In this document: positions 2,350 to 23,422 of the stretch, in pieces
Layout of the letters: each line of letters starts with the position of its first letter
Position numbering within the stretch: the first letter of the stretch is position 1
Assembly (NCBI GenBank): GCA_041492115.1
Contig: JBGPWJ010000002.1
Coordinates: 1-32,478 of the forward strand
DNA from: Gammaproteobacteria bacterium
GTDB taxonomy: Bacteria; Pseudomonadota; Gammaproteobacteria; JBBQDK01
Direction of reading: 5' to 3'
Length of the DNA: 32,478 nt
Program-made: the position numbers and the translations under genes
Notes under the pieces: generated by a model
The model's input: the letters and a program-made list of their open reading frames with translations, nothing else
Told to the model about the DNA's origin: nothing
The model's database searches: none

Positions 2350-2382
2350 TATGAGTTCTCCCTATCGGTAAGGTTCCACACA

Positions 2383-2729: not shown

Positions 2730-2754
2730 AAGTTTGCCGGTCGGACACTGCCTG

Positions 2755-6494: not shown

Positions 6495-7961
6495 TCACGA
6501 CGAACAACTCACTGCAATCGCGCCCGCCCAATCCGGCGGTGCGGCGGCGTAGCTGTGGTTCTCCGGTTGCTCATCGTACGGATGTTGCAGTACCGCCAGC
6601 AGCCGGTCGATCTCGCTGTAATCGCGCGCCTGGGCGCGGCGGATGGCGGTCTCGGCCAGGTAATTGCGCAGCACGTATTTCGGATTGACACGGTTCATGC
6701 GCGCGCGGCGCTCATTATCATCGCTGTGCTCGGCGGCCAGTCGCGCGCGATAGTCCGCGGCCCAACTGTCGAAGGCCGCGCGCTCCAGGAACTGATCGCG
6801 CAGCACTGCATTGCGCGCGCCCGGACTGGAATCGAAATCGCCCAGGGCGCGGAACAGCAAGGTGTAATCGACGTGGTTGGCGTGCATCGCGTGCAGCAGC
6901 GTGTGAGCCAGTGCCTCATCGGCGGGATGCGCAGCGCGCAGTCCCAGTTTGGCGCGCAGTTCCGCCAGATAGTGCGCGGCGAATATTGATTCATACTCCG
7001 CCAGCAGTTCAGTGCAGCGCGCGGCCGGTATCAGCGGTGTCAATGCCTGCGCCAGCCGGCCGAGATTCCACAGCCCGACGCCCGGTTGCTGATCGAAGGC
7101 ATAACGGCCATGGTGATCGGAGTGGTTGCAGACGAAGCCCGGATCATAGCTGTCGAGAAAGCCGAACGGACCGTAATCCAAGGTCAGTCCCAGGATCGAC
7201 ATATTGTCGGTATTCATCACGCCATGCGCGAAGCCCACCGCCTGCCACTGCGCCATCAGCCGTGCCGTGCGCTGGATGACAGCGTCGAGCAGCAGCGCGT
7301 AGCGGTCCTCGGCCTCAACCAGTTCCGGGTAGTGTGCGCTGATGACGAAATCCGCGAGTCGCTTGATCTCGTCGAACTGGCGCCGGTGATAAAACACCTC
7401 AAAGCTACCGAAGCGCACATGTGAGGGCGCCATGCGCAGCAGCACGGCGCCGGTTTCAATGGTTTCGCGATACACCTCCTCATCGCTGCCGACGATACAC
7501 AGCGCACGCGTGGTCGGAATGCCCAGGCCGTGCATGGCTTCGCTGCACAGGTATTCGCGGATCGTCGAACGCAGCACGGCGCGGCCATCGCCGGCGCGCG
7601 AGTAGGGCGTCGTCCCCGCGCCTTTGAGTTGCAGTTCCCAGCGTTCGCCCGCGCTGTTGCGCACCGCGCCGAGCAGAATGGCGCGGCCGTCGCCGAGCTG
7701 CGGAACGAAGTGGCCGAACTGATGGCCCGCGTAGAGCATGGACAGCGGCTCGCTGCCGCTCAGCAGGCGATTGCCGGCCAGATACTCCGCGAAGTCAACG
7801 CGCTGTGCTTCGGTCGGATCGAGATCGATGAGCTGCGCCGCCGCGGCATTGAAGCTGACGAGATACGGTGCGGGCAGCGCTGTCGGCGCGACGCGCGAAT
7901 AGAACGCCTCCGGCAGACGCGCAAAGTGGTTGTCGAAGGTGAGGGATTCGAGTGTCTGCAT
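6495..7961 (-). CDS. selO: Protein adenylyltransferase SelO (YdiU/UPF0061)
   Basis: A 488-aa ORF. The N-terminus (LTFDNHFARLPEAFY) and the length are typical of SelO, as are YAGHQFG, LGDGRA and MNTDNMSILG. Confidence 0.9.
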   Translation of the reverse strand: MQTLESLTFDNHFARLPEAFYSRVAPTALPAPYLVSFNAAAAQLIDLDPTEAQRVDFAEYLAGNRLLSGSEPLSMLYAGHQFGHFVPQLGDGRAILLGAVRNSAGERWELQLKGAGTTPYSRAGDGRAVLRSTIREYLCSEAMHGLGIPTTRALCIVGSDEEVYRETIETGAVLLRMAPSHVRFGSFEVFYHRRQFDEIKRLADFVISAHYPELVEAEDRYALLLDAVIQRTARLMAQWQAVGFAHGVMNTDNMSILGLTLDYGPFGFLDSYDPGFVCNHSDHHGRYAFDQQPGVGLWNLGRLAQALTPLIPAARCTELLAEYESIFAAHYLAELRAKLGLRAAHPADEALAHTLLHAMHANHVDYTLLFRALGDFDSSPGARNAVLRDQFLERAAFDSWAADYRARLAAEHSDDNERRARMNRVNPKYVLRNYLAETAIRRAQARDYSEIDRLLAVLQHPYDEQPENHSYAAAPPDWAGAIAVSCSS

Positions 7962-8186: not shown

Positions 8187-8789
8187 ATGGATAATCTCAA
8201 TAGCCTGCTGGCACGCCCTGATACCGTCTTGTGGGGTGCCGTGCTGACCTCACTGCTGCTGGTCGCGGTGCTGATTATGCTGGCGTGGCGCCGGCACACC
8301 AAACGCCATCAGGTGTCGCGCTTGCTGCGCAGCCTTGGCGGCATTTATGTGCACGATCTGATTATCCCGGACGGCGTGGGCGGCACCATCCAGACCGATT
8401 TCCTGGTGCTGTTGCGCGGCGGGGTGCTGGTGCTGGACGTGAAGAATTACCGCGGCGCGCTGTTCGGCGCCGAGAATGCGCCGCTCTGGTCGCAGATGGT
8501 GAGGGCACGCAGTTTCAAGTTCACCAACCCGCTGCCGGAAAATACCCTGCGTGTGCAGTCGCTGAAGTTGCTCCTGCCCAACGTGCCGGTGATCGGGCGC
8601 GTGGTGTTCACGCGCGAGGGCCGTTTCCCGCGTGACATGCCGGTGGGCGTGTCCATGCTCGATACCCTGGCCGAGGATCTCGGCGCATTCGCCGGCCCCG
8701 CATCGTTGCAGTACCTGGAGGCCTGGAAACGGCTCAAGGCGGGTGAGCACATTTCCTCGGTGGACGGAGCGGTGGCGGAGTCGGGTTAA
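8187..8789 (+). CDS. NERD-domain protein with an N-terminal TM anchor
   Basis: A 200-aa ORF with a TM helix (VLWGAVLTSLLLVAVLIMLAW). The NERD-like core reads DFLVLLRGGVLVLDVKNYRG...W......F.NPL. Confidence 0.7.
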   Translation: MDNLNSLLARPDTVLWGAVLTSLLLVAVLIMLAWRRHTKRHQVSRLLRSLGGIYVHDLIIPDGVGGTIQTDFLVLLRGGVLVLDVKNYRGALFGAENAPLWSQMVRARSFKFTNPLPENTLRVQSLKLLLPNVPVIGRVVFTREGRFPRDMPVGVSMLDTLAEDLGAFAGPASLQYLEAWKRLKAGEHISSVDGAVAESG

Positions 8790-9943: not shown

Positions 9944-11080
9944 TTACAGTAAGCCGCGCACGCTGTTCCAATATAATTTGTTATAGGCCAGTTTGAACCA
10001 GTGAATAACCTTGGTGGGCGGCATCGGGTTCGGCGGGTTCTTGTAATCGAAGGCCGCGTAGGTCGCCCGGTCCTTGCCGGCCTCGATGAAGCAGAACACC
10101 TTGCCTTCGTATTCGCGCACCATGTGGCCGTGCGTTACCAAGGCCGCGAGGTTGTCGCCCATGGCTTCGGCTTCGTAATGCGCGGTGGAACCGGCCTTGC
10201 TGATCGGAATATTGGTGGTGTCGCCGAGCACGAAGACGTTGTTGCGTCCCTCCATCTGCAAGGTCGCGCGATTGGTGGGGATCCAACCACCGCCGCCGAG
10301 CTTGTTGGCCTCTATGACCTCCATGCCCTTATGCGGCGGCACGGCGATCAGTAAATCGTAATCGACGACCGTGCCTTCCTCGCTCAGTACCTGTTTCTTG
10401 GCGCCGTCGACTTGCTTGGCGTTGAACAGTGTTTCGTATTTGATGCCCATGCGGTCGAACTCACCCACAGCCCATTTCGCGACGTTCTCCAGCGAATGGA
10501 TGCGGCCGATCGGATAGGTGTAGTAGAACTCCACTTTGTCGAGGATGCCGCGGTCCTTGAAGAAGTCGTACATCATGAAAGTGACCTCCAGCGGCACCAT
10601 CGGGCATTTGTGCGGCACGCCGGTCACGATGGCGATCCTGCCGCCCTGGAATTCAGTAAGCGCCTTGAGTGTTTTGATTGCGGCCTCTTCGGTGTAGACA
10701 TGGTGGGCGTTCTCCAGCAGTCCCGGCACGGCCGCCAGATCGGGGCGCGAGCCGGTGCAGATCGCCATGTAATCGTAGTCGTAGGTTGTGCCGCTCTTGG
10801 TCTTGACCTGGTTGTTGTCAAGATTGAACTGCTCGACCGGATCAACATGAAATTCGATGGACGGTTCCAGCAGGCCGGCCTGGTCCACGTACAATTCACT
10901 CGGCGCCATCTTGCCGAACGCGACATACAACAGACCCGGCTGATACATGTGTTTGTCGGACGCCGAGAGCATGATGATGCGCAGCTTGCCGGCCTTGATT
11001 TCGCCGCTGAGGCGGCGCGCCAGATTGTTGCCGAGAATCGTACCGGCGGTGCCGCCGCCTACAATGAGAATTTTCTTCAT
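9944..11080 (-). CDS. FAD-dependent pyridine nucleotide-disulfide oxidoreductase, sulfide:quinone oxidoreductase-like
   Basis: I prefer the start MKKILIVGGGTAGT (ATG is the reverse complement of 11078-11080, with AGGAG upstream). The 11215 start in the ORF track would overlap tusA. It has a Rossmann GGGxxG motif, an HKCPMVPLE motif and GDTTNIPISKAGS. Confidence 0.85.
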   Translation of the reverse strand: MKKILIVGGGTAGTILGNNLARRLSGEIKAGKLRIIMLSASDKHMYQPGLLYVAFGKMAPSELYVDQAGLLEPSIEFHVDPVEQFNLDNNQVKTKSGTTYDYDYMAICTGSRPDLAAVPGLLENAHHVYTEEAAIKTLKALTEFQGGRIAIVTGVPHKCPMVPLEVTFMMYDFFKDRGILDKVEFYYTYPIGRIHSLENVAKWAVGEFDRMGIKYETLFNAKQVDGAKKQVLSEEGTVVDYDLLIAVPPHKGMEVIEANKLGGGGWIPTNRATLQMEGRNNVFVLGDTTNIPISKAGSTAHYEAEAMGDNLAALVTHGHMVREYEGKVFCFIEAGKDRATYAAFDYKNPPNPMPPTKVIHWFKLAYNKLYWNSVRGLL

Positions 11081-11130
11081 GATGTGACTCCTGGGTATCG
11101 CGTGGTCAGATTCATTTGCATGCCGAACCG

Positions 11131-11361
11131 CTATTTCATCTTGCGGACACGGACGTGGTACACACCGCCTGCTTCGGTCGTGCTCACCATGGCGTGCCCG
11201 ACTTTGTTGATCCACTCGGGGATGTCGTTCGCGGAACCCTTGTCAGTGGACAGAACTTCCAGTTCATCGCCGACGGCGGCCTGTTTCATGGCCGCGATCA
11301 GTTCCATCAGCGGGCCAGGACAGAAGGAACCGCGCGCATCGATCGTCTTAGAATCACTCAT
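11131..11361 (-). CDS. tusA: TusA/SirA-family sulfur carrier protein
   Basis: A 76-aa ORF with the DARGSFCPGP (CPxP) active-site motif near the N-terminus. Confidence 0.85.
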   Translation of the reverse strand: MSDSKTIDARGSFCPGPLMELIAAMKQAAVGDELEVLSTDKGSANDIPEWINKVGHAMVSTTEAGGVYHVRVRKMK

Positions 11362-11388
11362 CTCGTCTTATCCTCTCGACCTGATACA

Positions 11389-11778
11389 TCAGAATGTCAG
11401 CACGTGACTGCCGCCGATCCCGTCCAGAAACTTGGTCAGTCCCATGGGCTTTTCCAAGTGAGGATCGAGATCGTTCTCCGACACGCCCAGCACATCCATC
11501 GCCATGGAACAGGGATAAAGATGTGCGTCGCCCAGATCCACCGCCTGTTTGAAAAGGTCGGTGAAGTTGGGAACGTTTTTCGCGTTCATCAGCTTGCCCA
11601 TTTCGCCCTCCGCGGGCGCCTGCAGATCACGGCCCTTGATGAAGTAGGTCAAGGCGTTCATGGACAGAAACACCGAAACCTCGGTGTTGGTCACCGCCGC
11701 GACGGCGGCTATCATGCCCGCCATCTGGAGTTTTTCGCGGGTTCCCGAGGTGAGGATCAAATGCAGTTTGTCAGACAT
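11389..11778 (-). CDS. DsrE/DsrF-like family protein
   Basis: A 129-aa ORF. The N-terminal beta strand LHLILTSG, a conserved Cys context (YPCSMAM) and the size and position next to tusA are typical of DsrE2/E3-type proteins. Confidence 0.75.
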   Translation of the reverse strand: MSDKLHLILTSGTREKLQMAGMIAAVAAVTNTEVSVFLSMNALTYFIKGRDLQAPAEGEMGKLMNAKNVPNFTDLFKQAVDLGDAHLYPCSMAMDVLGVSENDLDPHLEKPMGLTKFLDGIGGSHVLTF

Positions 11779-11797
11779 TGTGTTAGCCGCCTGTTGC

Positions 11798-11815
11798 GGG
11801 GTAGCCGGCTACCCC
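11798..11815. promoter_or_regulatory. Perfect 18-bp palindrome GGGGTAGCCGGCTACCCC in the leader of the sulfur operon
   Basis: Read directly from the sequence. It lies 20-37 nt upstream of the ATG at 11778 (minus strand). It could be an operator or a 5'-UTR hairpin. Confidence 0.4.
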
Positions 11816-12213
11816 AGGATGCACTTTTCTATATAGCATAGTTGAAGAATGTTCAGATTGTGGCCTGAACCTACCAGTATAGAGCATGCTGGTATTTATA
11901 GGTGGCGGTGGCTATCTGTCCCTTGCCGGCATAGGTGCCATCTGAGCCAAATCGGGGGTTGGAATTGCCGTCTGAGACAATGCATTCTTGCCCGAGAGCA
12001 GGCCCTCCGCCACGCTTGCGTGGCCGCGACCGCGCCTATCAGGTTTTATGCCTGCCGGCCGAAAACACTCAAGGAAGTTCCAATGTATTGCGCCGTCACC
12101 CGGCGGCGCTCCCGCATGGGCAATGCTGAACACAGGGTTGAGGAAAGCGTGGTTCCCTGGCATAAAACGCGCCGCTGTGCTATCAAGCAGTCACCATCTG
12201 GGGGTCTACACTT

Positions 12214-12915
12214 ATGAGGCGGGGTAATCCGGATACTGGCCTGCGCACGATCCGCCGCGATCGTCCCGGTGTCCTGTTGTTACTGGCTTTCGGTGTGCTG
12301 TGTTCTGCGCAGTTGCCGGCGGCCGGGGTGACGGGTCAGGTGGTTGACAGCGCCGGTCTGCCGGTCGAGGACGCGGTCATCAGCCTGACGCCGCGCGACG
12401 CTGTGTCTCCGGCCGCCGCTGTGACTGCCCCCGCCGCGGTCATGGACCAGTGGGGCAAGCAGTTCACACCTTACGTTTTGCCGGTGCGGGTCGGCACCAG
12501 GGTGTCATTCCCCAATCGCGACAACATCAAACACCATGTCTATTCCTTCTCTCCGGCGAAACGCTTTGAGCTGAAGCTGTATTCATCCGGCACGGCGCAA
12601 CCGGTGCTGTTCGACAAACCCGGCATCGTGGCCTTGGGGTGCAACATTCATGACTGGATGATCGCTTACATCGATGTACTGGCGACGCCGTATTTCGCCA
12701 AGACCGATGCGCAGGGGCACGCCGGCATCGACGCGTTGCCCGACGGTGTCTACCACGTCGAGGTGTGGCACCCGCGTCTGCGCGGCAGCGTTACAGATTT
12801 CTCCCGAGACATCACATTGAGCGGCGCAAAACCGGTGGCACTGCAATTTACGCTGCCACTGAAGCGCGAGCAGCACCGCGCGCCGCCGCGCTATTATGAA
12901 GGTGGAGGTTATTGA
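12214..12915 (+). CDS. Exported cupredoxin-like protein flanked by CarboxypepD_reg-like beta segments (a type often annotated as methylamine utilization protein)
   Basis: Has a signal peptide (VLLLLAFGVLCSAQLPAAG). The pattern HHVYSF ... GCNIHDWM gives a His/Cys/His/Met set with C-x2-H-x2-M spacing. Confidence 0.65.
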   Translation: MRRGNPDTGLRTIRRDRPGVLLLLAFGVLCSAQLPAAGVTGQVVDSAGLPVEDAVISLTPRDAVSPAAAVTAPAAVMDQWGKQFTPYVLPVRVGTRVSFPNRDNIKHHVYSFSPAKRFELKLYSSGTAQPVLFDKPGIVALGCNIHDWMIAYIDVLATPYFAKTDAQGHAGIDALPDGVYHVEVWHPRLRGSVTDFSRDITLSGAKPVALQFTLPLKREQHRAPPRYYEGGGY

Positions 12916-15313
12916 GGTGTTCCGGCGCTTTCAGACCAAGCTGGTGTTGTTCTATATCACCCTGTTCGCAGCGGTGCAGGTCATCACGCTGCTGACGGTC
13001 TACACCATCACGACACACAATGTGTACACGCAGATTCAGGACCAACTGCGCTACGCCAGTCGCATCTTCAAACTACAGATCGAGGATCGCTCGCACAAGC
13101 ATGCCCAGGCCGCGCGCATTCTGGCGGCCGACTTCGGCTTTCGCGATGCGGTGACCTCGGCTGATCCGGCCACCATGCAATCCGCGATCGGCAATCTGGG
13201 CGCGCGCATCAAGGCCGATCGCGTACTGCTGGTGTCGCTCAACAACCAGACCGTCGCTGATACACAGCATCCGCACATGCCGGCCGGTGTGTTCGCCTAT
13301 TCCAGTCTGATCGCCACCGCCGAGGAACATGACGAGGCCGTCGCCATGGTGGTGATGGACGGCGCGATCTACGAGATGGTGGTGGTGCCGGTACTGGCGC
13401 CGACGCCGGTCGCCTGGCTCGTCATCGGCGCGCGAATCGATGATGCTTTGACCGCCGATCTCAAGGCGCTGTCGCCTCTCGAGCTGGATCTGTCGTTTGC
13501 GCACCGCGCGGGCGCTGACTGGCAACTGGCCGCAACTACGCTGGGTGCGGAACGCCGGCAGACGCTCTCCGGGTATCTGCGCGGCGCAAAGTTTGTCGCC
13601 GATCAACCCGGTGCCACAGAGCTCGGCCTGGATAATTATATGGCGCTGGTCACACCACTCGCTTCGCCGGATCATGGTGCACCGGTGGTCGCTGTATTGC
13701 AGTACGCGCTCGCCACCGGGCTGCGTCCGTATCAGCCACTGCTGTTGTGGTTGCTGGTGTTGACCGGCGCCGGTCTACTGGTGTCGCTGGTCGGTGGCAT
13801 GTTGATCGCACGCGGCGTGACCAAACCGGTGCGTATTCTGGCCGAGGCCGCGCGGCGCCTGGAGCAGGGCGATTACACACAGACGGTGCAGCTTGCCCGG
13901 CGTGATGAACTGGGACAACTGGCCGCGGCCTTCAATCACATGACGGCGCGCATCGCGGAACGCGAGGAACGCATTCGTCATCAGGCGCAGCACGATGCGG
14001 TGACCGGCCTGCCCAACCGCACGCTGTTCGAGCAGAGCGTACGCGAGACGATCGCGACGCTGGCGCGCGATTCGGCCGGCTGTTCCGTGGTGCTGGTCTA
14101 TATCGACCGCTTCGCCGATATCCGCAATACCCTCGGTCACGAGGTGAGCGATCGGCTGATCCGGCACGTTGGCGATCGCCTGCGCGCGGTAATCAAGCAG
14201 ACCGACACGCTGGCGCGTCTCGCCACCGACGAGTTCGTGCTGCTGACGCTGGGCACGGAAGAGGACGCCATGCGCGTCATCGTCGAGCGTCTGCTCGGCG
14301 TCTTCGAGGCGCCATTCAGTATCGATGGCGTAACCATCGACGTCAACGCCCACCTTGGCGTTGCCTGTTATCCGGTGCATGGCGAGGACGCCGATACCTT
14401 GTTGAAACGCGCTGACGTGGCCATTTCTAGCGCGCGGCGTTCATTGCGCCGTTACGCCGTCTACGATGCGCAGAACGATATCTTCACCCGTCGCCGTCTG
14501 TCGCTGATGAGCGAATTGCGCCAGGGTCTGGAGCGCAACGAACTGCAATTGTATTACCAGCCGCTCATCGATCTGGCCAGCGATCGCGCCACTCACGTCG
14601 AGGCGCTGGTACGCTGGCAGCATCCGACCAACGGTTTTCTGCCGCCCGATGACTTCATCCCGCTGGCGGAACAGAGTGGTAACATTCAGCGACTCACCGC
14701 TTGGTGTTTGGAGCGTGCCATCGAACAGTGCAGCGCCTGGCGTCAGGCCGGCATCGCGCTGACCGTGGCGGTGAATCTGTCGGCGCGCGATCTGCCCAAC
14801 CGCCGACTGCCGGGGCTGATCGCCGAGTTGCTGCATCGCAATGACGCGCAGCCGCACTGGCTGACGCTGGAGATCACCGAGAGTGCGCTGATGCAGGAGC
14901 CGGAGCAGGCGCTGCAGGTGCTGCGCAGCCTGAAGGACATGGGGATGCGTCTGGCGATCGATGATTTCGGGACCGGCTACTCGTCGATGGCCTATCTGAA
15001 GAAGCTGCCGGTCGATGAACTGAAGATCGACAAATCCTTCGTGCTCGGACTGGCGAGCAGCGCGGAGGACGAAATAATCGTGCGTTCCATCATCGATCTC
15101 GGCCATAATCTCGGCTTGAAGGTCACCGCCGAAGGTGTCGAGGACGAGGCCGCACTGGAGATTCTGCGCCGTTATGGTTGCGATAAAACACAAGGCTATC
15201 TGTTTAGTCGTCCCCAGCCGGTTCTGTTGCTGGACCGCTGGCTGGCTGCCGCCAACCGGGATGGCGTCATGACGACGGTACAGAACGCGTCGATCAGCAA
15301 ACACGCCGGCTGA
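12896..15313 (+). CDS. Inner-membrane signalling protein with a periplasmic sensor domain, HAMP, a degenerate GGDEF and an EAL domain (c-di-GMP phosphodiesterase type)
   Basis: Two TM helices bracket a periplasmic region of about 260 aa. The HAMP segment reads RGVTKPVRILAEAARRLEQGDY. The GGDEF domain carries ATDEF in place of GG[DE]EF. The EAL domain has EALVRW, NLS, EITE, DDFGTGYSS, KIDKSF, EGVE and QGY. An alternative GTG start at 12917 has GGAGG 8 nt upstream. Confidence 0.9.
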   Translation: MKVEVIEVFRRFQTKLVLFYITLFAAVQVITLLTVYTITTHNVYTQIQDQLRYASRIFKLQIEDRSHKHAQAARILAADFGFRDAVTSADPATMQSAIGNLGARIKADRVLLVSLNNQTVADTQHPHMPAGVFAYSSLIATAEEHDEAVAMVVMDGAIYEMVVVPVLAPTPVAWLVIGARIDDALTADLKALSPLELDLSFAHRAGADWQLAATTLGAERRQTLSGYLRGAKFVADQPGATELGLDNYMALVTPLASPDHGAPVVAVLQYALATGLRPYQPLLLWLLVLTGAGLLVSLVGGMLIARGVTKPVRILAEAARRLEQGDYTQTVQLARRDELGQLAAAFNHMTARIAEREERIRHQAQHDAVTGLPNRTLFEQSVRETIATLARDSAGCSVVLVYIDRFADIRNTLGHEVSDRLIRHVGDRLRAVIKQTDTLARLATDEFVLLTLGTEEDAMRVIVERLLGVFEAPFSIDGVTIDVNAHLGVACYPVHGEDADTLLKRADVAISSARRSLRRYAVYDAQNDIFTRRRLSLMSELRQGLERNELQLYYQPLIDLASDRATHVEALVRWQHPTNGFLPPDDFIPLAEQSGNIQRLTAWCLERAIEQCSAWRQAGIALTVAVNLSARDLPNRRLPGLIAELLHRNDAQPHWLTLEITESALMQEPEQALQVLRSLKDMGMRLAIDDFGTGYSSMAYLKKLPVDELKIDKSFVLGLASSAEDEIIVRSIIDLGHNLGLKVTAEGVEDEAALEILRRYGCDKTQGYLFSRPQPVLLLDRWLAAANRDGVMTTVQNASISKHAG

Positions 15314-15321
15314 CGGAAGAT

Positions 15322-16548
15322 ATGCACATGATCAAGGGGCTCTGCAAGGCGGCACTGATTTTGGCACTCTGCAGCGCGCAGGCCGACGACAGTTATCCGG
15401 ACATCACACTCGGCGGGCTGCTCGATCTGCGCGCCGCGCGCACCGACGACACCACAAGCTGGCTCGATCACGGCCTGGGCAAGACGCGCTACGGGGGCAC
15501 CGCCGGCGACAGTCGTGTGCTCGGCCGCGTCGCCGAGGCGGCACTGTTGATCACCTCGCATCTTAACTGGTCGACCTCGGGACAACTCTACATCAAGTAC
15601 GATGCCGACCAGCACCAGCCGCTGGATATCGTCGAAGGCTTTGTCGACTACCATCCGGTGTCCACCACCGCGTACCGCTTCACAGGTCGCGTCGGTGCAT
15701 TCTTCCCGCCGGTCTCGTTAGAAAACACCGGCCCGGCCTGGACCAGTCCCTACAGCATCACGCCGTCCGCCATCAACACCTGGATCGGCGAAGAGGTGCG
15801 TACGCTGGGCGGCGAAGGCACTTTGCACTGGTTGGGCGAGGAACAACGGGCGAGCGCCAGCTTGGCCGTCTATAAAGCCAACGATCCCACCGGCAGTCTG
15901 ATCGCCTGGCGCGGCTGGGCGCTGCATGACTTCAAGCCGGGCCTGCATGATCGCATGCCGCTGGCACATACCGAAATCTTCGATGACTTTCCACGCCAGG
16001 CGCCGTGGGTGGCACCGTTTCGCGAGATCGACGGGCATTGGGGTTATTACGGCGCGTTGGCCTACGAGCGACCCGGCAAATATACGCTGCGCGCAATGCA
16101 CTACGACAATCGCGCCAATCCCGATGCCTTCAATGGCACGCAATGGGCCTGGCATACGCGTTTCTCCAGCGTCGGCATGAAATTCCTGTTGCCGCACGAC
16201 GTCGATATGATCGCCCAGTATCTGTTCGGCGACACCTATATGCGCGGCCGCCGCGCGGTCGTGGATACGGATTTCTCGTCCTGGTTCGTGCTGCTCAGCA
16301 AGCGCATCGATCAACACCGCTTCACGCTGCGCTATGATTTGTTCGGCGTGCAGGACAATGCCGGTGTTGAGTACAACGATCACGGCCATGCCTGGACACT
16401 GGCCTACGCGCTGGAGGTGAACGACAAGCAGCGCCTGATACTGGAACTGCTGTCTATCAACAGCAAGCATCCGCAGCGCGACGACCTGGGCCTGCCGGCG
16501 GTCGCTCGCGAACATCTCCTGCAGGCGAGTTATCGCATCTTCTTCTGA
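15322..16548 (+). CDS. Putative outer-membrane beta-barrel protein
   Basis: Has a signal peptide (ALILALCSAQA|DD), many Tyr/Trp/Gly-rich alternating segments and a C-terminal ...ASYRIFF with terminal Phe. It starts 8 nt after the EAL gene. Confidence 0.55.
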   Translation: MHMIKGLCKAALILALCSAQADDSYPDITLGGLLDLRAARTDDTTSWLDHGLGKTRYGGTAGDSRVLGRVAEAALLITSHLNWSTSGQLYIKYDADQHQPLDIVEGFVDYHPVSTTAYRFTGRVGAFFPPVSLENTGPAWTSPYSITPSAINTWIGEEVRTLGGEGTLHWLGEEQRASASLAVYKANDPTGSLIAWRGWALHDFKPGLHDRMPLAHTEIFDDFPRQAPWVAPFREIDGHWGYYGALAYERPGKYTLRAMHYDNRANPDAFNGTQWAWHTRFSSVGMKFLLPHDVDMIAQYLFGDTYMRGRRAVVDTDFSSWFVLLSKRIDQHRFTLRYDLFGVQDNAGVEYNDHGHAWTLAYALEVNDKQRLILELLSINSKHPQRDDLGLPAVAREHLLQASYRIFF

Positions 16549-16639
16549 ACACTGTGTCGTGTTAAGGCAGCGCGCTGCGCGGGGATGATATTTCCACAGG
16601 CCACCGTGACAGCCGCCTTCCCTGGCCTTATCATGCGGC

Positions 16640-18139
16640 ATGCCTGTGAATCCTTCCGCCAATCTCATCGCCGCTGTCGATCTCGGTTCGAACAGCTTCC
16701 ACATGATCGTGGCACGGGTCAGCAATGGTCAGCTGCACATCATCGATCGACTGCGCGAGACCGTGCGGCTTGGATCCGGCCTGGACAAGCGCCACCAGCT
16801 CAGTGTGGCGGCGCAAAACCGCGCACTGGCCTGTCTGCGCCGCTTCGGTCAGCGGCTGCGCGCCATGACGCCCGGCAATGTGCGCTGCGTCGGCACCAAT
16901 GCCTTGCGCCAAGCGCGCAATGCCGAGGACTTCCTGGCGCGCGCGCAGCGTGCGCTCGGTCAGCCCATCGAGGTGATCGCCGGCCGCGAAGAAGCGCGCC
17001 TGATTTATCTAGGCGTGGCGCACAGCGGTCCGGAGACGCGCGGCAAACGTCTGGTGCTGGATATCGGCGGCGGCAGCACCGAGCTGATCGTTGGCAAAGG
17101 TTTCGAATCGCTGCACCGCGAGAGTCTGTACATGGGTTGCGTGAGCATGAGTGGCGCGCACTTCGCCAACGGTGTGATCAAGCGCGCCACGTTCGCGGCC
17201 GCCGAACTCGCGGCGCATCAGGAATTGCAGCCGGTGCAGGAAAATCTGCTGAATGCCGGCTGGAAGACCGCCATCGGCGCTTCCGGCACACTACTCGCCG
17301 TACGCGATGTGCTGCGCGCGCAGGGTTGGAGCGCGGCCGGTATCACGCTGCGCGGTCTGAAGCGACTGCGCAAGGCACTGCTCGATGCCGGCCATATCGA
17401 CAAGCTCAAGCTCAGCGGACTCAGCGCCGACCGCGCGCCGGTGTTCCCCGGCGGCGTGGCGATCCTGATCGCCATCTTCGAAGCCTTCGGGCTGAAGAAA
17501 GTCGCGGTCTCCGAGGGCGCGCTGCGCGAAGGTCTGCTCTATGACCTGCTCGGCCGCATCCGCCGCGAAGACGTGCGCGAGCGCACCATCCAGGCCTTAT
17601 GCACACGCTATCAGGTGGACCCGACGCATGCCGAGCGGGTGCGCAAGACCGCGCTCAGTGCGCTCGATGCCGTGTTGAAAGCCTGGGGACTGAAATCCGA
17701 TGAGCAGCGCAATCGTCTGGGCTGGGCCGCGCGTCTGCACGAGATCGGTCTGTCGCTGGCGCACACGCGCTTTCACAAGACTGGCGCCTATCTGATCGCC
17801 AACTCCGATCTACCGGGTTTCTCATTGCAGGAACAGAAACTGCTTGCGATGCTGGTGCGCGGACATCGGCGCAAGTATCCCAGCGCTGCCTTGCAGGTGC
17901 TGCCGCGCGCTTCGCAGCGCGCGGTGAAATATCTCTGCGTGCTGCTGCGACTGGCCGTGCTGCTGCACCGCGCCCGCGCCAACCAGGCGCCACCGCGCTT
18001 GAAGATCGCCGCCGGCACCAATCAGTTGCGCCTGCGCTTTCCCGTCAACTGGCTGGAGCGCCACCCGCTCACCGCCGCCGACCTCGTCCAGGAAGCCGCG
18101 TATCTCAAGGCGGCGAAGATCAAGCTCAAGTTTGCCTGA
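16640..18139 (+). CDS. ppx: Exopolyphosphatase / guanosine pentaphosphate phosphohydrolase (Ppx/GppA family)
   Basis: A 499-aa ORF. The N-terminal AAVDLGSNSFHM, then DIGGGSTE and an HD-like C-terminal domain, are typical of Ppx/GppA. Confidence 0.9.
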   Translation: MPVNPSANLIAAVDLGSNSFHMIVARVSNGQLHIIDRLRETVRLGSGLDKRHQLSVAAQNRALACLRRFGQRLRAMTPGNVRCVGTNALRQARNAEDFLARAQRALGQPIEVIAGREEARLIYLGVAHSGPETRGKRLVLDIGGGSTELIVGKGFESLHRESLYMGCVSMSGAHFANGVIKRATFAAAELAAHQELQPVQENLLNAGWKTAIGASGTLLAVRDVLRAQGWSAAGITLRGLKRLRKALLDAGHIDKLKLSGLSADRAPVFPGGVAILIAIFEAFGLKKVAVSEGALREGLLYDLLGRIRREDVRERTIQALCTRYQVDPTHAERVRKTALSALDAVLKAWGLKSDEQRNRLGWAARLHEIGLSLAHTRFHKTGAYLIANSDLPGFSLQEQKLLAMLVRGHRRKYPSAALQVLPRASQRAVKYLCVLLRLAVLLHRARANQAPPRLKIAAGTNQLRLRFPVNWLERHPLTAADLVQEAAYLKAAKIKLKFA

Positions 18140-18172
18140 GAACTGACAGCGCCTTGGTGATTTTCTCAGCGG

Positions 18173-18889
18173 CTACTTCGTGAGCAACGGCTTCTGCGGA
18201 GTAGCCTCGAGGTATTTCAGTATCGCCGCTTCCACCGTGGCGTAATCCTGGTTGAAGTGATGGCCGCCGGGCATGCGCAGCGTGCGCACGTTGCTTCCCT
18301 TGAGTACCGGGCAGAGCGCCTCGGCTTCCTGCTCGGCGCCGTAGACGCACAGTAACGGCAGGCGGATGCGCGCCGCTTCGCTGGTCACATCCAATGCGCC
18401 GGGGCGGTGGACTTCGGTGAACCAGTCGTTGACCTTGATCTCGACGTTGGCGTATTTCGCGGGCGCCAGCAGCGCCACCAGTGTCACGCGTGCTTGCAGA
18501 TCGGGTGGCAGGCGGTTGATGAGAAACGGCAGCCAGGACGCGCCGAACGAGTAGCCGACCAGCAGCAGCCGGTGCTTTTGCCATGCACTCAGATAGTGGC
18601 GCAGCACCTCGTTGACATCGCGCGACACTTCATCGGGTTGACGAATCTGCCAGAAGTACTTCAAGCAGTCGAAACCGAGTGTGGAGATGCCTTTCTTCTG
18701 GAAGGCGTTGCCAAAGTCGCGGTCAAGATCGGCCCAGCCGCCGTCGCCGGAGAGAATGATCGCGAGCACGTCGTTGCCGGCATCAACGGCGCGCAATTCG
18801 ACCACAGGCGTATCGTGATGAGCGGCCGTTGCCGGCGGGGCAGCGGGACAGATTGGCGTCAACAGCGCGCCGATCAGTGTCATGAGCAT
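18173..18889 (-). CDS. VirJ/AcvB-type alpha/beta hydrolase (exported)
   Basis: AIILSGDGGWADLD, CLKYFW and the GYSFGA nucleophile elbow match the VirJ family. I prefer the start at MLMTLIGALLTPICPAAP (18889), which gives a signal peptide. The 19102 start adds an implausible 71-aa extension. Confidence 0.65.
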   Translation of the reverse strand: MLMTLIGALLTPICPAAPPATAAHHDTPVVELRAVDAGNDVLAIILSGDGGWADLDRDFGNAFQKKGISTLGFDCLKYFWQIRQPDEVSRDVNEVLRHYLSAWQKHRLLLVGYSFGASWLPFLINRLPPDLQARVTLVALLAPAKYANVEIKVNDWFTEVHRPGALDVTSEAARIRLPLLCVYGAEQEAEALCPVLKGSNVRTLRMPGGHHFNQDYATVEAAILKYLEATPQKPLLTK

Positions 18890-19140
18890 GGAGAAGATCG
18901 GTTGCGTCTTCACTTGCCAGGCCCGCGTGGCGGGGTGGGGCGCCAGACGGTTGCGCTGCGGACGGCGACAAGGGAGCAGGGGATTCTGGCAAATGATGAG
19001 CATGGCGCTGATTATAATGTGGGATGTGTGGGGGAGTGAATTAATTACCAATTGTCGTGAAACCCGCCGCGCTGCGGTTGATCTGTTCTTGTCGTAGGGC
19101 ATATGCTAGGCGCCTGCTCAATCAGCTGTGAGGATGTGCC

Positions 19141-19392
19141 ATGCCCTATACGCCGGAACTTATTGATGAACTGAAGATGCTGAGTCACTACAACCTGGCC
19201 AATATCGATGAGGGCTTGAAGGCCCATCACACGGCGAATTCCGCCATGATCGCCGCGATGCGACGCTTGTATGACAAAGGTCTGGTGACTCACGAAGATG
19301 GCGGCTATCTCACCGACCTGGGCCGCGAGGCGGCCGAACATGCGCAGGCCGCCTTGACCATCCTCACCTCCGAACGCGCGCTTGCACAATAG
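19141..19392 (+). CDS. Small conserved hypothetical protein (possibly TIGR02647-like; family name recalled with low certainty)
   Basis: An 83-aa ORF with GAGGA upstream of the ATG and GC-typical codon usage. Confidence 0.55.
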   Translation: MPYTPELIDELKMLSHYNLANIDEGLKAHHTANSAMIAAMRRLYDKGLVTHEDGGYLTDLGREAAEHAQAALTILTSERALAQ

Positions 19393-19437
19393 CAACACAC
19401 CGTGCCATTCGTTTATCCGTAAAGTCATGGAGACTGC

Positions 19438-20352
19438 ATGAAAGCCAATAATATCCTGGAGACGATAGGCAACACCCCGCACGTCCGCATCAACCGCCTG
19501 TTCCCGGCCGCTGTTCAGGTCTGGATGAAATTGGAGCGGGCCAATCCCGGCTGTAGCATCAAGGACCGTATCGGTCTGGCGATGATCGTCGATGCGGAGC
19601 AGCAGGGCCTGATCAACAAGGACACCGTCATTATCGAGCCGACCTCCGGCAACACCGGCATCGGCCTGGCGATGGTGGCCGCGACCCGCGGTTACCGCCT
19701 GATTCTCACCATGCCGGAATCCATGTCGCTGGAGCGGCGCCGTTATCTCGCCGCGCTGGGCGCCGAGCTGGTGTTGACGCCGCGTGAGAAGGGCATGGGC
19801 GGTGCCATGGAGCGGGCCAAGGAGTTGCTGGTCGAGCACAAGAACAGCTGGATGCCGGCGCAGTTCAGCAATCCGGCGAATGTCGCCATACACCGCGACA
19901 CCACCGCGCGTGAAATCATCGCGGACTTTCCGGAAGGCCTCGATTATCTCATCACCGGTGTCGGTACCGGCGGTCATATCACTGGTTGCGCCGAGGCCTT
20001 GAAAAAAGTGTTTCCCAAGTTGCAGGTGTTTGCTGTCGAACCGGCCGGTTCACCGGTGTTGAGCGGCGGCGTGAAGGGCCTGCATCCGCTGCAAGGCATA
20101 GGCGCGGGTTTTGTGCCCGAGATTCTCAGGATGGATCTGCTCGATGGGGTGATCAAAGTCGAACACAAGGACGCTTTCGATTTCGCCAAGCGCTGCGTGC
20201 GCGAGGAGGGCATCTTCATCGGCATCTCATCGGGCGCTTCCCTGGCGGCGGTCAACACAAAAATAAATGAGATACCCGCGGGCAGCCGCGTGCTGACCTT
20301 CTGTTACGACAGCGGCGAGCGTTATCTGTCGGTGGATGGACTGTTCCTCTAG
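19438..20352 (+). CDS. cysK: Cysteine synthase A (O-acetylserine sulfhydrylase)
   Basis: A 304-aa ORF with the PLP-lysine motif (NPGCSIKDR), the [10 protein letters not shown] loop and GTGGHITG. Confidence 0.92.
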
Positions 20353-20481
20353 AACTATCAGTTGATCGTATAAATACAAACGCCATCTTGGATTCATAGG
20401 CGATTGTTGCCAGGCGGACAGTCCAGGCAGTTGGACTATTTCTCGAACGGCTACATTCGTCCCGGAAGAGGCCGTTGAAGC

Positions 20482-20528
20482 CTGGGTTGAACGAAGCGAA
20501 ACCCGGGTTTCGCTGTTGCTCAACCCAG
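20482..20528. repeat. 47-nt imperfect palindrome between the convergent cysK and ATPase genes (terminator-like)
   Basis: CTGGGTTGAACGAAGCGAAACCC (20482-20504) faces GGGTTTCGCTGTTGCTCAACCCAG (20505-20528). Each arm can also fold on itself (GGGTT...AACCC). Confidence 0.6.
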
Positions 20529-20636
20529 ACCACGGCTGCTCAGATGCGCACGTGCCGAATGACAAACTTCGACCCTGAGCCGCCCTTCTATTTTCCTGAA
20601 AGGAGACGTTCGCCAAGATAGAAGCGCATGATTTTC

Positions 20637-23180
20637 TCAGTGACGCCGTATAACTTTGTAAAACTCGAACCACATCACGCTGCCCAGTCCGGCGACAAAA
20701 CTAAGCACGAGTTGGTAAGGTGATACACGGGCAAAGTGGAACACCTCGCGCAGGAAGGGCAGAGTCAGCGCCAGTATGAGGAAACTGCATGCACCGCCTG
20801 TTACCCACCACAACGCTGGGTTGTGGTTGTTAAATGTTTGCAGGATGGTGTGTTGTAAGGAGCGGTTAGTCAGGATCAGACCGAGGTTGCCGATGACCAG
20901 CGTGGAGAAAGTCAGTGCGCGCGCTTCTGTTTCCGATGAGCCATGGCTCAGTGTGAAGCCCAGCACCGTGAGCGTGGCGAGCAGCACGAATACGCCTTGC
21001 AGCAGGCTGAGCTGGAAAATGTGTTTTCCGAACAGCGGTTCCTGCCGACCGCGCGGCGGGCGATGCATGACACCGCGTTCTGCCGGTTCAGCCTCGAAGG
21101 CGATGGAGCAAGCGGGGTTGATAATCATTTCTAGAAACACGATGTGTACCGGGGCGAACACAGGCGGCCAGCCGAGCAGCAACGGGATCAGCGCCAATCC
21201 GGCGATGGGGATGTGCACCGCGAAAATGTAGGCCATCGCCTTGCGCAGGTTGTCGAAGATGCCGCGCCCGATGCGCACGGTGCGCACGATGGAGGCGAAG
21301 TCGTCATCCAGCAGTACCAGCGCCGCCGCCTCGCGCGCCACGTCGGTACCGCGTGCGCCCATGGCGATGCCAATATGTGCGGCTTTCAGTGCGGGAGCGT
21401 CGTTTACCCCGTCACCGGTCATCGCCACCACTTCGCCATTGTCTTTGAGCGCGATAACCAGCCGCAGTTTCTGTTCCGGTACCATGCGCGCGAAAATGTT
21501 GCTGTGGCGGATGCGCTCGTGAAGCGTCACATCGTCCATCTGACTGAGTTCTGAGCCGCTGATGACGCCGCCGCTCCCTGCATTCAGCCCGATCTGTTCC
21601 GAAATCGCCACAGCAGTAGCGGGATAATCGCCGGTAATCATCACCACGCGGATGCCTGCTGTGGCGCATTCCTTAAGCGCCGGAATGACCGTTGGGCGCA
21701 CCGGGTCAGCCAAGCCGATCAGGCCGAGAAATTCGAAATCGAAATCATGCTGGATGTCAGGCCATACACTGCCGCGATAGCTGGCTTTGGCCACCCCCAG
21801 CACGCGCATGCCTTGCGTGGCGAGGGAGTCGACCTGAACGGCCAGCGCCGCCAGTTGTGCCTCATTCAGATGACACAGGTCGGCCACTGCCTCCGGTGCG
21901 CCTTTGGCCGCCACCACGTATTTATCGCGATCACGCGCCTTCCACACATGTGACAGCGCGAGCAGTTTCGGGGACAGCGAATATTCATGTGCCAATATCC
22001 AGTCGCGGTGCAGGTGTTCGGTGTCTGCAAGGTAATGCGCGCCGAGTACGTGGATCGCTTTTTCCATCGGGTCGAATGGTTCGATCTCGCTGGACAGGAT
22101 GCCGAACTCGACGAGTTCGTGGAATGCTTCTGGCAGCGGCGCAGGTGATGCATCTACCATGAATGAAACACTAGTCGCGATCAACTGCTGTACCACCATG
22201 CGGTTTTGCGTGAGCGTGCCGGTCTTGTCCACGCACAGCACCGTGGCCGAGCCCAGCGCTTCCACCGTGGGCACGCGGCGTGTTAGCACCCGATGCTTGG
22301 AAATGCGCCATGCACCCATCGCCATGAATATGGCCAGCACTACCGGGTACTCTTCCGGCAGGATGGACATCGCCAACGTGATGCTTGACAGCAGCCCGTG
22401 CAGCCAATCGCCACGGGCGATGCCATAGATCACCAGCAGAAGCAGGCTTAACAGCACGCCGACAACAGCAAGCTTGCGCACCAGATTGCCGATTTCCTTT
22501 TGCAATGGTGTGGTTTCGGTTCTCTGTTCCTGCAAGACTTTGCCGACCTTGCCAATCTCGGTACGCGCTCCGGTTCCCAGCACCTGCGCCCTGCCGCGTC
22601 CTTGCACCACCAGTGTGCCGGAATAGACGAAGGGCAGATCGTCGCCGCCAGGCGGTTGCAACTCTTCGGCATCCACCTGTGCAACCTTGCGCACAGCCAC
22701 AGATTCACCGGTGAGAAGCGATTCATCTGCCGCAAAGTCGTTGCAGGTAATCAGTGTCGCGTCCGCCGGGACGCGGTCGCCTTCAGACAGGATCAGGATG
22801 TCGCCGCGCACTACCTCGCGCCCGGCAATGCGCCGTTCGACACCGTCGCGCAGTACCAGTGCACGAGGGCTGGTAAGATCGCGCAAGGCTTCGAGCACGC
22901 GCTCCGTCTTGTATTCCTGATAGATGGTGATGCCCATCACCATGAACACAAAGCCCAGCAGCACCAGTGCATCGCTGACATCACCCAGCAGCAGGTAGAT
23001 TGCGCCCGCCACCACTAGCAGCAGGAACATTGGCTCGCGCAGCACTTCCAGCGCGATTACCTGAATGTTGCGCTGACCTGCAGTAGGCAGTTCGTTCGCG
23101 CCCTCAGCTCGCAGCCGCGCCTGTGCTTCGGCTTTGGACAGGCCATGCATATCATCACGATCGGAAGTTGGTTGGCTCAC
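20637..23180 (-). CDS. Cation-transporting P-type ATPase (P2 type, Ca2+/Mg2+-like)
   Basis: Has the TGES motif (LTGESVAV), the phosphorylation site DKTGTLT, TGDGVNDAPALK, the PEEYP TM4 motif and about 10 TM helices. Start is uncertain: the GTG at 23180 has AGGAAAGG 8 nt upstream. Alternatives are the TTG at 23213 (ORF track) or the ATG at 23150. Confidence 0.9.
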   Translation of the reverse strand: MSQPTSDRDDMHGLSKAEAQARLRAEGANELPTAGQRNIQVIALEVLREPMFLLLVVAGAIYLLLGDVSDALVLLGFVFMVMGITIYQEYKTERVLEALRDLTSPRALVLRDGVERRIAGREVVRGDILILSEGDRVPADATLITCNDFAADESLLTGESVAVRKVAQVDAEELQPPGGDDLPFVYSGTLVVQGRGRAQVLGTGARTEIGKVGKVLQEQRTETTPLQKEIGNLVRKLAVVGVLLSLLLLVIYGIARGDWLHGLLSSITLAMSILPEEYPVVLAIFMAMGAWRISKHRVLTRRVPTVEALGSATVLCVDKTGTLTQNRMVVQQLIATSVSFMVDASPAPLPEAFHELVEFGILSSEIEPFDPMEKAIHVLGAHYLADTEHLHRDWILAHEYSLSPKLLALSHVWKARDRDKYVVAAKGAPEAVADLCHLNEAQLAALAVQVDSLATQGMRVLGVAKASYRGSVWPDIQHDFDFEFLGLIGLADPVRPTVIPALKECATAGIRVVMITGDYPATAVAISEQIGLNAGSGGVISGSELSQMDDVTLHERIRHSNIFARMVPEQKLRLVIALKDNGEVVAMTGDGVNDAPALKAAHIGIAMGARGTDVAREAAALVLLDDDFASIVRTVRIGRGIFDNLRKAMAYIFAVHIPIAGLALIPLLLGWPPVFAPVHIVFLEMIINPACSIAFEAEPAERGVMHRPPRGRQEPLFGKHIFQLSLLQGVFVLLATLTVLGFTLSHGSSETEARALTFSTLVIGNLGLILTNRSLQHTILQTFNNHNPALWWVTGGACSFLILALTLPFLREVFHFARVSPYQLVLSFVAGLGSVMWFEFYKVIRRH

Positions 23181-23422
23181 ATATACAGCCTTTCCTTTAC
23201 GGATGGCGCGCAATCAGATTACAGCAGCGCAACTATACTTCAAAAGGAATTTAGTGATTCAACCATTCTGTAATAGGGCTGCCAATTGAATGGCGGCTAT
23301 TGGCCTTGGGTTGTCTGTCAGATCCCCAGTTCGAGCACGCCATCAATGACCGAAGTTGAATGGGAAGCCGACACAGCGTATGCAGGCACTTCTGTCTCAA
23401 CCAGACCCAGGCTAATGGAATG

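Follow-up and report, generated by a model that had tools for sequence, protein, structure and literature searches.

The stretch of DNA analysed here (the window) comprises 32,478 nucleotides of contig JBGPWJ010000002.1 (assembly GCA_041492115.1, Gammaproteobacteria bacterium, GTDB lineage JBBQDK01), and the system in question is a set of three genes on its forward strand, here called A, B and C. Their predicted products are an exported blue-copper protein (A), an inner-membrane sensor phosphodiesterase of the signalling nucleotide cyclic diguanylate (c-di-GMP; B) and a porin-like outer-membrane barrel (C). A previous reading of the letters without database searches (the sequence-only reading) had described three co-directional, tightly packed genes that together place one component in each layer of the envelope; the open reading frame (ORF) listing bears out their coordinates and spacings, and the identity and predicted localisation of all three parts also hold. 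The genes and the region upstream of them are as follows.

11779-12213, + strand: upstream intergenic region of 435 nucleotides, common to the trio and to divergent DsrE/TusA/SQR-like genes
12214-12915, + strand: gene A, 233 residues (ORF listing)
12896-15313 (ATG 12896, 805 residues) or 12917-15313 (GTG 12917, 798 residues), + strand: gene B (ORF listing)
15322-16548, + strand: gene C, 408 residues (ORF listing)

Genes A and B overlap by 20 nucleotides if B begins at ATG 12896 and are separated by 1 nucleotide if it begins at GTG 12917. The GTG is the probable start, because the Shine-Dalgarno sequence GGTGGAGG lies upstream of it and because homologs begin aligning at query residue 8-11 in an exhaustive search; residue numbers of B nevertheless follow the 805-residue ORF throughout. 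The gap between B and C is 8 nucleotides, or 14 if C begins at ATG 15328, the start of a 406-residue database copy (P0001). The promoter of the trio presumably lies within the intergenic region 11779-12213, and one weak promoter-like site was noted near this leader (11688-11715). In the stretch scanned (11600-16800), the + strand shows no terminator-like site inside the trio or beyond it, the single such site there being on the - strand inside C, and a promoter-like site is present upstream of ppx, the next gene after the trio. A search against Rfam found no riboswitch or other RNA family in the window, including the 435-nucleotide leader.

The following features were recognised in protein A, the four copper ligands by alignment to the ligand positions of 5fc9/9cck.

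Residues ~1-36, + strand: signal peptide, preceding the first strand in the structural model
Residues ~37-62 plus 158-217, + strand: CarboxypepD_reg-type immunoglobulin-like (Ig-like) domain (Pfam, spliced construct)
Residues ~63-157, + strand: cupredoxin domain, nested within the Ig-like domain
12532-12534, + strand: copper ligand H107
12640-12642, + strand: copper ligand C143
12649-12651, + strand: copper ligand H146
12658-12660, + strand: copper ligand M149

The only Pfam match of intact A is half of a CarboxypepD_reg domain (PF13620; residues 158-214), at 35.7 bits against a gathering cut-off of 32.3. When the halves on either side of the cupredoxin were spliced (residues 35-62 and 162-217), the match improved to 44.7 bits (E 1.8e-11) and extended over positions 2-81 of the 82 in the model, indicating that the cupredoxin is nested inside the Ig-like domain. 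Residues 73-154 align with PDB entries of blue copper proteins (5fc9, E 5e-4 by phmmer), further matches being amicyanin and the cupredoxin domains of two NirK enzymes. The AlphaFold model of A (predicted local distance difference test score, pLDDT, 83) gives amicyanin, pseudoazurin and plastocyanin as its top 50 Foldseek matches, with probability 1.00, E ~2e-5 and target-normalised template-modelling scores of 0.5-0.73, so that predicted structure and sequence match both point to a cupredoxin beta-sandwich. The His-Cys-His-Met ligand set (H107, C143, H146, M149) is identical in 186 of 186 aligned homologs, and the ligand loop, C-x2-H-x2-M, is short and spaced as in amicyanin. By sequence and model, A is thus predicted to be an exported type-1 copper cupredoxin. 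Its family is large, with more than 6000 matching database clusters at 90% identity, and very conserved outside the ligand loops as well (mean column identity 57%). Relatives carry database names such as 'plastocyanin' and 'methylamine utilization protein'; no methylamine dehydrogenase (mau) genes were found among the scanned ORFs of the window or in the related loci examined.

Protein B has the following features, all within its 805-residue ORF.

12938-13009, + strand: first transmembrane segment (TM1), read from the sequence
13010-13738, + strand: periplasmic sensor domain between TM1 and TM2, residues ~39-281 (~240 residues)
13739-13810, + strand: second transmembrane segment (TM2), read from the sequence
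13802-13954, + strand: HAMP domain, residues 303-353 (Pfam HAMP, 57 bits)
13985-14443, + strand: degenerate GGDEF domain, residues 364-516 (Pfam, 118.7 bits)
14222-14236, + strand: ATDEF motif at the GGDEF active site
14513-15214, + strand: EAL domain, residues 540-773 (Pfam EAL, 262.9 bits)

The HAMP domain, degenerate GGDEF domain and intact EAL domain that had been proposed for B are therefore confirmed by the Pfam domains, the ATDEF motif and the EAL motifs. In place of the GG[DE]EF motif of active cyclases B has ATDEF, the RxxD I-site is absent from the same domain, and the GGDEF motif is degenerate in 51 of 51 B homologs from loci found by way of C. All the motifs of a phosphodiesterase (EAL, N, E-x-T-E, DDFGTGYSS, KIDKSF, EGVE and QGY) are present in the EAL domain, and these catalytic motifs are conserved across the same 51 homologs. 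With one motif always degenerate and every one of the others conserved, B is predicted to be a dedicated c-di-GMP phosphodiesterase. Its periplasmic domain, which by reading of the sequence contains no cysteine, belongs to the dCache_3 family (PF14827; residues 46-221, 44.7 bits against a cut-off of 25.7), with a weak match to CHASE4 besides; a PDB sequence search with this domain gave no match. The NCBIfam models for LapD, YfiN, HmsP and DibA touch only the cytoplasmic HAMP-GGDEF-EAL part and score far under their cut-offs (LapD, NF045673, 190.5 bits against 1020, residues 270-775 only; YfiN, NF007423, 118.5 bits against 325, residues 283-509 only), which places B outside the LapD and YfiBNR families and agrees with the earlier impression that the parts of the trio are unrelated to YfiB, YfiN and YfiR or to LapD and LapG.

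Protein C has the following features.

Residues 1-21, + strand: signal peptide, cleavage after AQA
15457-15498, + strand: loop L1, conserved
15700-15795, + strand: loop L3, residues 127-158, FFPPVSLENTGPAWTSPYSITPSAINTWIGEE, from invariant columns mapped on predicted strands
15880-15921, + strand: loop L4, conserved
16531-16545, + strand: terminal beta-signal YRIFF, read from the sequence

The AlphaFold model of C is a barrel of 16 strands (pLDDT 82.7; predicted template-modelling score 0.82), and its best Foldseek matches are the porins VhChiP, OmpT, OprP/OprO and Omp32 (E 1e-13 to 1e-11, template-modelling scores 0.5-0.6), porin matches overall spanning E 1e-13 to 1e-9 and scores of 0.5-0.69. 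A predicted 16-strand barrel with a signal peptide and an aromatic C-terminal beta-signal upholds the suggestion, made from the YRIFF terminus, that C is an outer-membrane barrel. No Pfam or NCBIfam model matched C at E<=0.01, which leaves it outside the described porin families, and the profile of its family matched no PDB sequence at E<=1; it has more than 1500 homologs, labelled 'hypothetical'. The invariant residues of the family lie mainly in L1 (SWxxxGLGKTRYG), L3 (FFPPxSLENxxxAWTSPYxIxxSAINxWxGEE) and L4 (NDPxGxLxxWRGW). The most conserved stretch is L3, in the model the probable constriction loop, whose conserved acidic residues (E134, E157 and E158), together with conserved arginines on the strands, appear to resemble a porin eyelet. 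With the topology set by periplasmic N- and C-termini, the periplasmic turns are just 2-7 residues long and the conserved residues fall in the lumen and the extracellular loops, so that in the model C looks like a specific outer-membrane channel with almost no periplasmic surface. There is no lipobox, no periplasmic domain and no Pfam OmpA domain in C, nor is it a fused cytochrome-porin of the Cyc2 type, which passes electrons to a periplasmic cupredoxin, as C contains no CxxCH motif and its cysteines are confined to the signal peptide.

In species-representative genomes, 80 loci were picked out with a profile of C, and the ORFs of these loci were then searched with the proteins of the window. 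The best locus, from a metagenome-assembled genome (MAG) of Thiotrichaceae (L069), is 47% identical, so the organism of the window is without a close relative among the species-representative genomes. A, a B-type sensor and C occur together within 7 kb at 58 of the 80 loci, 43 of them with the order A>B>C on one strand, and permuted orders (C-A-B, sensor-C-A and A-C-sensor) were also seen. C is present by itself at 8 loci, and contig ends cut most of the other loci that do not contain the trio. The trio was found in Alphaproteobacteria (Rhodospirillaceae, Kordiimonas) and Gammaproteobacteria (Motiliproteus, Methylococcales, Cellvibrio) and in Marinimicrobia, Desulfobacterota, Acidobacteriota, Victivallales and Krumholzibacteria, among flanking genes that are unrelated from locus to locus. 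Cultured strains with the trio include Motiliproteus coralliicola C34 (L027), Kordiimonas gwangyangensis DSM 19435 (L038), K. lacus S3-22 (L051) and K. aestuarii JCM 17742 (L033). Recurrence in so many loci of unrelated taxa means that the arrangement is not due to chance. Thus, the co-conservation on which the sequence-only reading had beforehand made its own proposal depend was clearly found.

Only part of this three-gene unit is constant. The gap from the stop codon of A to the start of the sensor gene is mostly -4 to +30 nucleotides, and every informative look-up, be it seeded on A or on the sensor domain, shows A and the sensor side by side, as do all the plasmid and chromid records inspected. 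Six look-ups were seeded on A: four found a sensor-cyclase gene and then A, with a 4-nucleotide overlap and no C, one found an A-B-C trio, and one was cut by a contig end. Look-ups seeded on the sensor domain found A with a hybrid kinase, A with a GGDEF/EAL protein in the absence of C, and a kinase with C. Many A-sensor pairs lack C, and C is found alone in other contexts as well. Thus, the trio as proposed is co-conserved, but its conserved core is A plus the sensor domain, and C is a frequent accessory.

The family of the periplasmic domain of B comprises 1628 clusters at 50% identity (exhaustive search, E<=1e-3), and 56 of 64 representatives, sampled deliberately across lengths, match dCache_3. 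The same periplasmic domain and HAMP domain are fused in this family to HisKA-HATPase, to class III Guanylate_cyc, to GGDEF alone or to GGDEF-EAL, the outputs of the 64 representatives being GGDEF-EAL in 17, GGDEF alone in 12, cyclase in 18 and histidine kinase in 17 (some of them hybrid). A stays adjacent whatever the output, indicating that A and the periplasmic domain form the input unit. The proposal of a c-di-GMP module accordingly holds for B of the window, but the same input domain, with A, drives kinases, cyclases and active GGDEF domains elsewhere; the module serves as an input device, one without specificity for c-di-GMP.

Several variant cassettes surround the pair of A and its sensor. 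On chromids of Caballeronia, Burkholderia sp. PAMC 26561 and Novosphingobium, genes for a DUF3034 protein and an exported group 1 truncated haemoglobin precede A and B (L089, 4689-8992; also L091, L092, L093 and L094). The haemoglobin has a signal peptide, B has an intact GGDEF motif, and the DUF3034 protein, with a signal peptide and the C-terminus ...LQAGF, is probably another outer-membrane barrel; homology between it and C was not found (hhalign probability 0.3). The trans-envelope layout that had been proposed for the window thus recurs with a non-homologous probable barrel. A plasmid of Comamonas has the order DUF4394-A-B. At another locus (L096, 466-7260), A comes after a 242-residue protein that has a signal peptide and ends in ...RIYLTY, perhaps a small outer-membrane barrel of yet a third kind; A is followed by a hybrid histidine kinase that bears the same sensor domain and then by a REC-PAS-GGDEF-EAL protein. 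In a Steroidobacteraceae MAG (L080, 6100-9506), a gene for a sulfite-oxidase-like molybdoenzyme (Oxidored_molyb plus Mo-co_dimer) comes after A and C, and no B-type sensor is near them, which suggests that A can also partner a periplasmic redox enzyme. Two themes recur among the variants: an outer-membrane partner drawn from non-homologous proteins, and periplasmic redox proteins.

Two other neighbours of the trio were considered as components and set aside. A TonB-dependent receptor appeared at 55 loci by single-linkage clustering, a cluster probably inflated by spurious ORFs, but at only ~12 beside A by phmmer. It is encoded divergently (- strand) upstream of A in L001, L003, L004, L007, L010, L013, L014, L017, L019, L026 and L047; no model for a specific substrate, copper included, scored above its cut-off on it, and it is absent from the window. 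An AI-2E family transporter lies directly 3' of C at 29 of the 80 loci, yet is restricted in lineage and absent from the window. Individual loci also showed irregularities: two C paralogs follow B in tandem in L004, L009 and L014, B and C are read as one 1240-residue ORF in L024 (376-4098; explicable by loss of a stop codon, faulty assembly or fusion), and both are in fragments in L019, possibly as pseudogenes or through MAG errors.

A small exported partner that is invariant, and whose translation is coupled to that of a sensor with interchangeable outputs, suggests an accessory co-sensor, and A is rather likely to be a true co-sensor of B. We infer that A binds B, that redox is the signal and that C is a channel. 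In such a mechanism A would be exported to the periplasm, carry a type-1 copper centre and bind the dCache_3-type domain of B. The signal would be the state of this centre, most likely Cu(I) or Cu(II), as set by periplasmic electron donors and acceptors; B would pass the state of A by way of TM2 and HAMP to its EAL domain and alter c-di-GMP hydrolysis in this way, its degenerate GGDEF domain being regulatory at most. C would control the passage into the periplasm of the solute in question, be it an oxidant, reductant or metal, and the chances that it is a channel serving the signalling pathway seem evenly balanced. Redox is favoured as the signal because type-1 sites are electron-transfer centres, because the ligand set of A is invariant, because an exported haemoglobin or a molybdoenzyme is encoded in variant operons, and because a periplasmic domain without cysteine leaves B itself no thiol redox sensing. 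The full reading, in which A is a co-sensor, redox is its signal and the three genes form one operon, is put forward tentatively, at somewhat less than an even chance. With similar reserve, the A family may consist of dedicated redox or copper co-sensors for dCache_3 receptors, acting in signal perception and not in respiration, and these receptors may feed c-di-GMP, cyclic AMP/cyclic GMP and two-component pathways, often with an outer-membrane channel of their own.

Pearson correlations of evolutionary distance among A, the periplasmic domain of B and C are 0.84-0.92, whereas each of the three correlates with the EAL domain at 0.56-0.57, a contrast that is suggestive only. Several observations weigh against a redox co-sensor. 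The contrast is much smaller in the Spearman versions of these correlations (0.66-0.80 against 0.63-0.67), and slower evolution of the EAL domain could account for the Pearson difference. The absence of C from many A-sensor pairs and its occurrence alone elsewhere mean that its role is not obligatory. The trio is also present in lineages labelled as anaerobes (Desulfobacterales, Marinimicrobia), and blue copper proteins are unusual in anaerobes. Moreover, a change of redox state alters the structure of type-1 copper sites only little, so that a conformational signal for B to read is not obvious. Amicyanin, with the same short C-x2-H-x2-M loop, undergoes a redox- and pH-linked flip of its exposed ligand histidine, and by analogy such a flip in A is a possible readable change.

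The main alternative to a redox signal is copper occupancy, which we consider unlikely: C would admit copper, A would pass from the apo to the holo form, and B would read occupancy instead of redox state, tying c-di-GMP, cyclic AMP or two-component outputs to the periplasmic copper supply. The full and invariant copper ligand set of A fits such a sensor, as do a dedicated barrel with conserved acidic residues in L3 (E134, E157, E158), the TonB-dependent receptor divergent from A in ~12 Rhodospirillaceae-type loci, and the presence of several variants in Methylococcales (L022, L025, L031, L032, L042 and L053), whose physiology is governed by copper. However, the haemoglobin and molybdoenzyme neighbours indicate redox chemistry, the TonB-dependent receptor scores below cut-off for copper-specific models, and the known periplasmic copper sensors CusS and CopS/CinS use sites of other kinds.

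About as improbable is direct binding by the dCache_3 domain of B of a small molecule entering through C, with A as an auxiliary that oxidises or reduces the ligand or stabilises the dimer. Cache domains usually bind ligands directly, C looks like a specific channel, and the domain family of B has conserved motifs of its own (D72, F75, S89, R97, P158, P162 and W167; alignment A3). No candidate ligand can be named, however, and A is kept beside the sensor whatever the output and with or without C, as is typical of binding partners.

Sequestration in the manner of YfiBNR, in which A would repress or activate B until C captured A under envelope stress and freed B, is very unlikely. One predicted component per envelope layer in a compact operon recalls that system (PMC3375315), but the modelled C has turns of 2-7 residues, neither a periplasmic domain nor a lipobox, and conserved residues that are lumenal or extracellular; in addition, A-sensor pairs occur without C in many lineages and no sequence kinship to YfiB, YfiN or YfiR is apparent. 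There is even less reason to regard A as an ordinary electron carrier merely co-located with a sensor and a porin, in spite of the database names 'methylamine utilization protein' and 'plastocyanin' and of amicyanin as top structural match: no methylamine dehydrogenase or other respiratory partner genes are among the scanned ORFs of the window, adjacency to the sensor with overlapping stop and start codons persists across phyla and output types, and the Ig-like domain and the 57% mean column identity are atypical of a free carrier. LapD-like inside-out signalling, in which B would bind cytoplasmic c-di-GMP and capture A in the periplasm, shares with LapD (PMC3032553) the order periplasmic domain-HAMP-GGDEF-EAL but can practically be dismissed, as the EAL catalytic motifs of B are intact and conserved, the LapD model (190.5 against 1020) leaves the periplasmic domain uncovered, kinases and cyclases, whose signalling runs from outside to inside, are driven by this input domain too, and A is not a protease.

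YfiBNR and LapD/LapG, which the sequence-only reading had offered as parallels in logic, are therefore less apt than NspS-MbaA or PruR-DcpA, given that the modelled C has almost no periplasmic surface and the EAL domain of B is intact. In NspS-MbaA of Vibrio cholerae, the polyamine-binding NspS is thought to set the activity of a membrane GGDEF-EAL enzyme by binding to the periplasmic domain of MbaA. As in the window, a small exported protein is encoded beside a TM-periplasmic-TM-HAMP-(degenerate GGDEF)-EAL enzyme, but NspS has a substrate-binding-protein fold and no known dedicated outer-membrane partner, whereas A is a predicted cupredoxin with an Ig-like domain. TorT-TorS and LuxP-LuxQ are further known pairs of accessory co-sensor and receptor. 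Haem co-sensors are known from cytoplasmic H-NOX proteins with GGDEF-EAL enzymes and from HbpS-SenS of Streptomyces, where HbpS is extracellular. These resemble A in that a separate metalloprotein beside a signalling enzyme reports gas or redox state; A differs in being, as predicted, a periplasmic type-1 copper protein.

PruR of Agrobacterium tumefaciens is reported to bind a pterin and to control the adjacent dual GGDEF-EAL enzyme DcpA, in a pair conserved among Proteobacteria (PMC11194511, PMC4488946). PruR-DcpA shares with the window a periplasmic cofactor-binding protein next to a GGDEF-EAL enzyme, and the window differs by a copper partner, a dCache_3-type sensor, an added barrel and an input pair that is found on kinases and cyclases also. 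YfiBNR (TpbB) of Pseudomonas aeruginosa is a three-gene operon with a c-di-GMP enzyme and one product per envelope layer (PMC2837407, PMC3375315); unlike the trio, it comprises a cyclase (YfiN), an unrelated repressor (YfiR) and an OmpA/Pal-like lipoprotein with a periplasmic domain (YfiB), where the window has a predicted 16-strand barrel. In LapD-LapG of Pseudomonas fluorescens, the c-di-GMP receptor has no catalytic activity and signals inside-out to a protease (PMC3032553, PMC4359373). LapD has the order periplasmic domain-HAMP-GGDEF-EAL and binds a partner in the periplasm, as B may do, but B keeps all the EAL catalytic motifs and its periplasmic domain lies outside the LapD model match. 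NsrA of Sinorhizobium meliloti is an outer-membrane-associated protein needed for signal perception upstream of the CHASE2 adenylate cyclases CyaD1, CyaD2 and CyaK (PMC7529298). It offers a likeness for C, as an outer-membrane-associated protein that serves inner-membrane receptor cyclases, in a system with a different receptor domain (CHASE2) and no known cupredoxin partner.

Amicyanin, pseudoazurin and plastocyanin (PDB 1aac, 1paz and 2plt, among others) share with A the cupredoxin fold, at target-normalised scores of ~0.6-0.7, and the His-Cys-His-Met ligands, the C-x2-H-x2-M spacing being that of amicyanin. Unlike these free copper carriers, A is nested in an Ig-like domain, is far more conserved and is encoded beside a sensor instead of a dehydrogenase or reductase. 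The porins VhChiP, OmpT, OprP/OprO and Omp32 resemble the modelled C in the 16 strands, the long L3 and eyelet-like acidic and arginine residues, whereas C has no sequence similarity to any porin of Pfam, NCBIfam or the PDB, is most conserved in L1, L3 and L4 and is encoded within a sensor operon.

A periplasmic accessory protein that gates a membrane signalling enzyme is known in kind; as far as the literature found extends, the blue copper accessory, the size and breadth of its family and the dedicated porin-like barrel are new. The module was not found in the literature retrieved for links of cupredoxins, blue copper or 'methylamine utilization protein' to c-di-GMP or sensor modules. No link to the A family could be made for the proteins with the last of these names in Burkholderia pseudomallei (BPSS0404) and Xanthomonas arboricola (WDL40_08210), and DUF3034 receives only passing mentions.

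For most of the sensor domains that c-di-GMP enzymes, histidine kinases and cyclases have in the periplasm no signal is known, and here a whole receptor family appears to get its input from a partner metalloprotein. If A is a redox co-sensor, it would be the first cupredoxin known as a signalling partner, as far as the literature found extends, and cupredoxins would gain a signalling role besides electron transport. Bacteria would have a widespread means of reading the periplasmic redox state, decisions on biofilm and motility would be tied to periplasmic redox state or copper in sulfur oxidisers and methanotrophs among others, and the porin-like barrel and its non-homologous substitutes would be outer-membrane proteins serving a signalling pathway. 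The copper state of a small soluble protein provides a concrete and cheap experimental handle, and the misleading names 'methylamine utilization protein' and 'plastocyanin' on some of the more than 6000 matches of A can be corrected.

Other genes noted in the window are listed below.

700-1155, - strand: YccF-like gene, in the stretch 1-3000 of low guanine-plus-cytosine (GC) content
1585-2349, - strand: ORF of 254 residues with no Pfam match, in the same low-GC stretch
6495-7961, - strand: SelO protein adenylyltransferase, upstream of the sulfur cluster
8187-8789, + strand: NERD-domain gene, upstream of the sulfur cluster
Within 9944-11778, - strand: Pyr_redox_2 flavoprotein (SQR/FCSD-like), the listed GTG start of which overlaps TusA
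11131-11361, - strand: TusA
11389-11778, - strand: DsrE-like protein
16640-18139: Ppx/GppA, between the trio and Trypsin_2
18173-19102, - strand: VirJ, between the trio and Trypsin_2
20637-23213, - strand: P-type cation ATPase, between the trio and Trypsin_2
24028-25764: ORF of 578 residues with no Pfam match, between the trio and Trypsin_2
28777-30054: Trypsin_2
29880-31013: FHA

The genes at 9944-11778 on the - strand form a sulfur-trafficking cluster divergent from the trio, in which the flavoprotein probably starts at the methionine of MKKILIVGGG near 11080; the SelO and NERD genes have no apparent tie to the trio. GC content falls to 0.44-0.50 at 1-3000 and to 0.48 at 23001-24000, against ~0.61 elsewhere. 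In a relative (P0006, with a 67% identical C), genes for Trypsin_2, an FHA/YscD-like protein and an HflX-like GTPase come within ~1 kb after the trio, whereas Trypsin_2 and FHA of the window are ~12 kb further from the trio, so that 16640-28700 looks like a block insertion or rearrangement relative to the P0006 contig.

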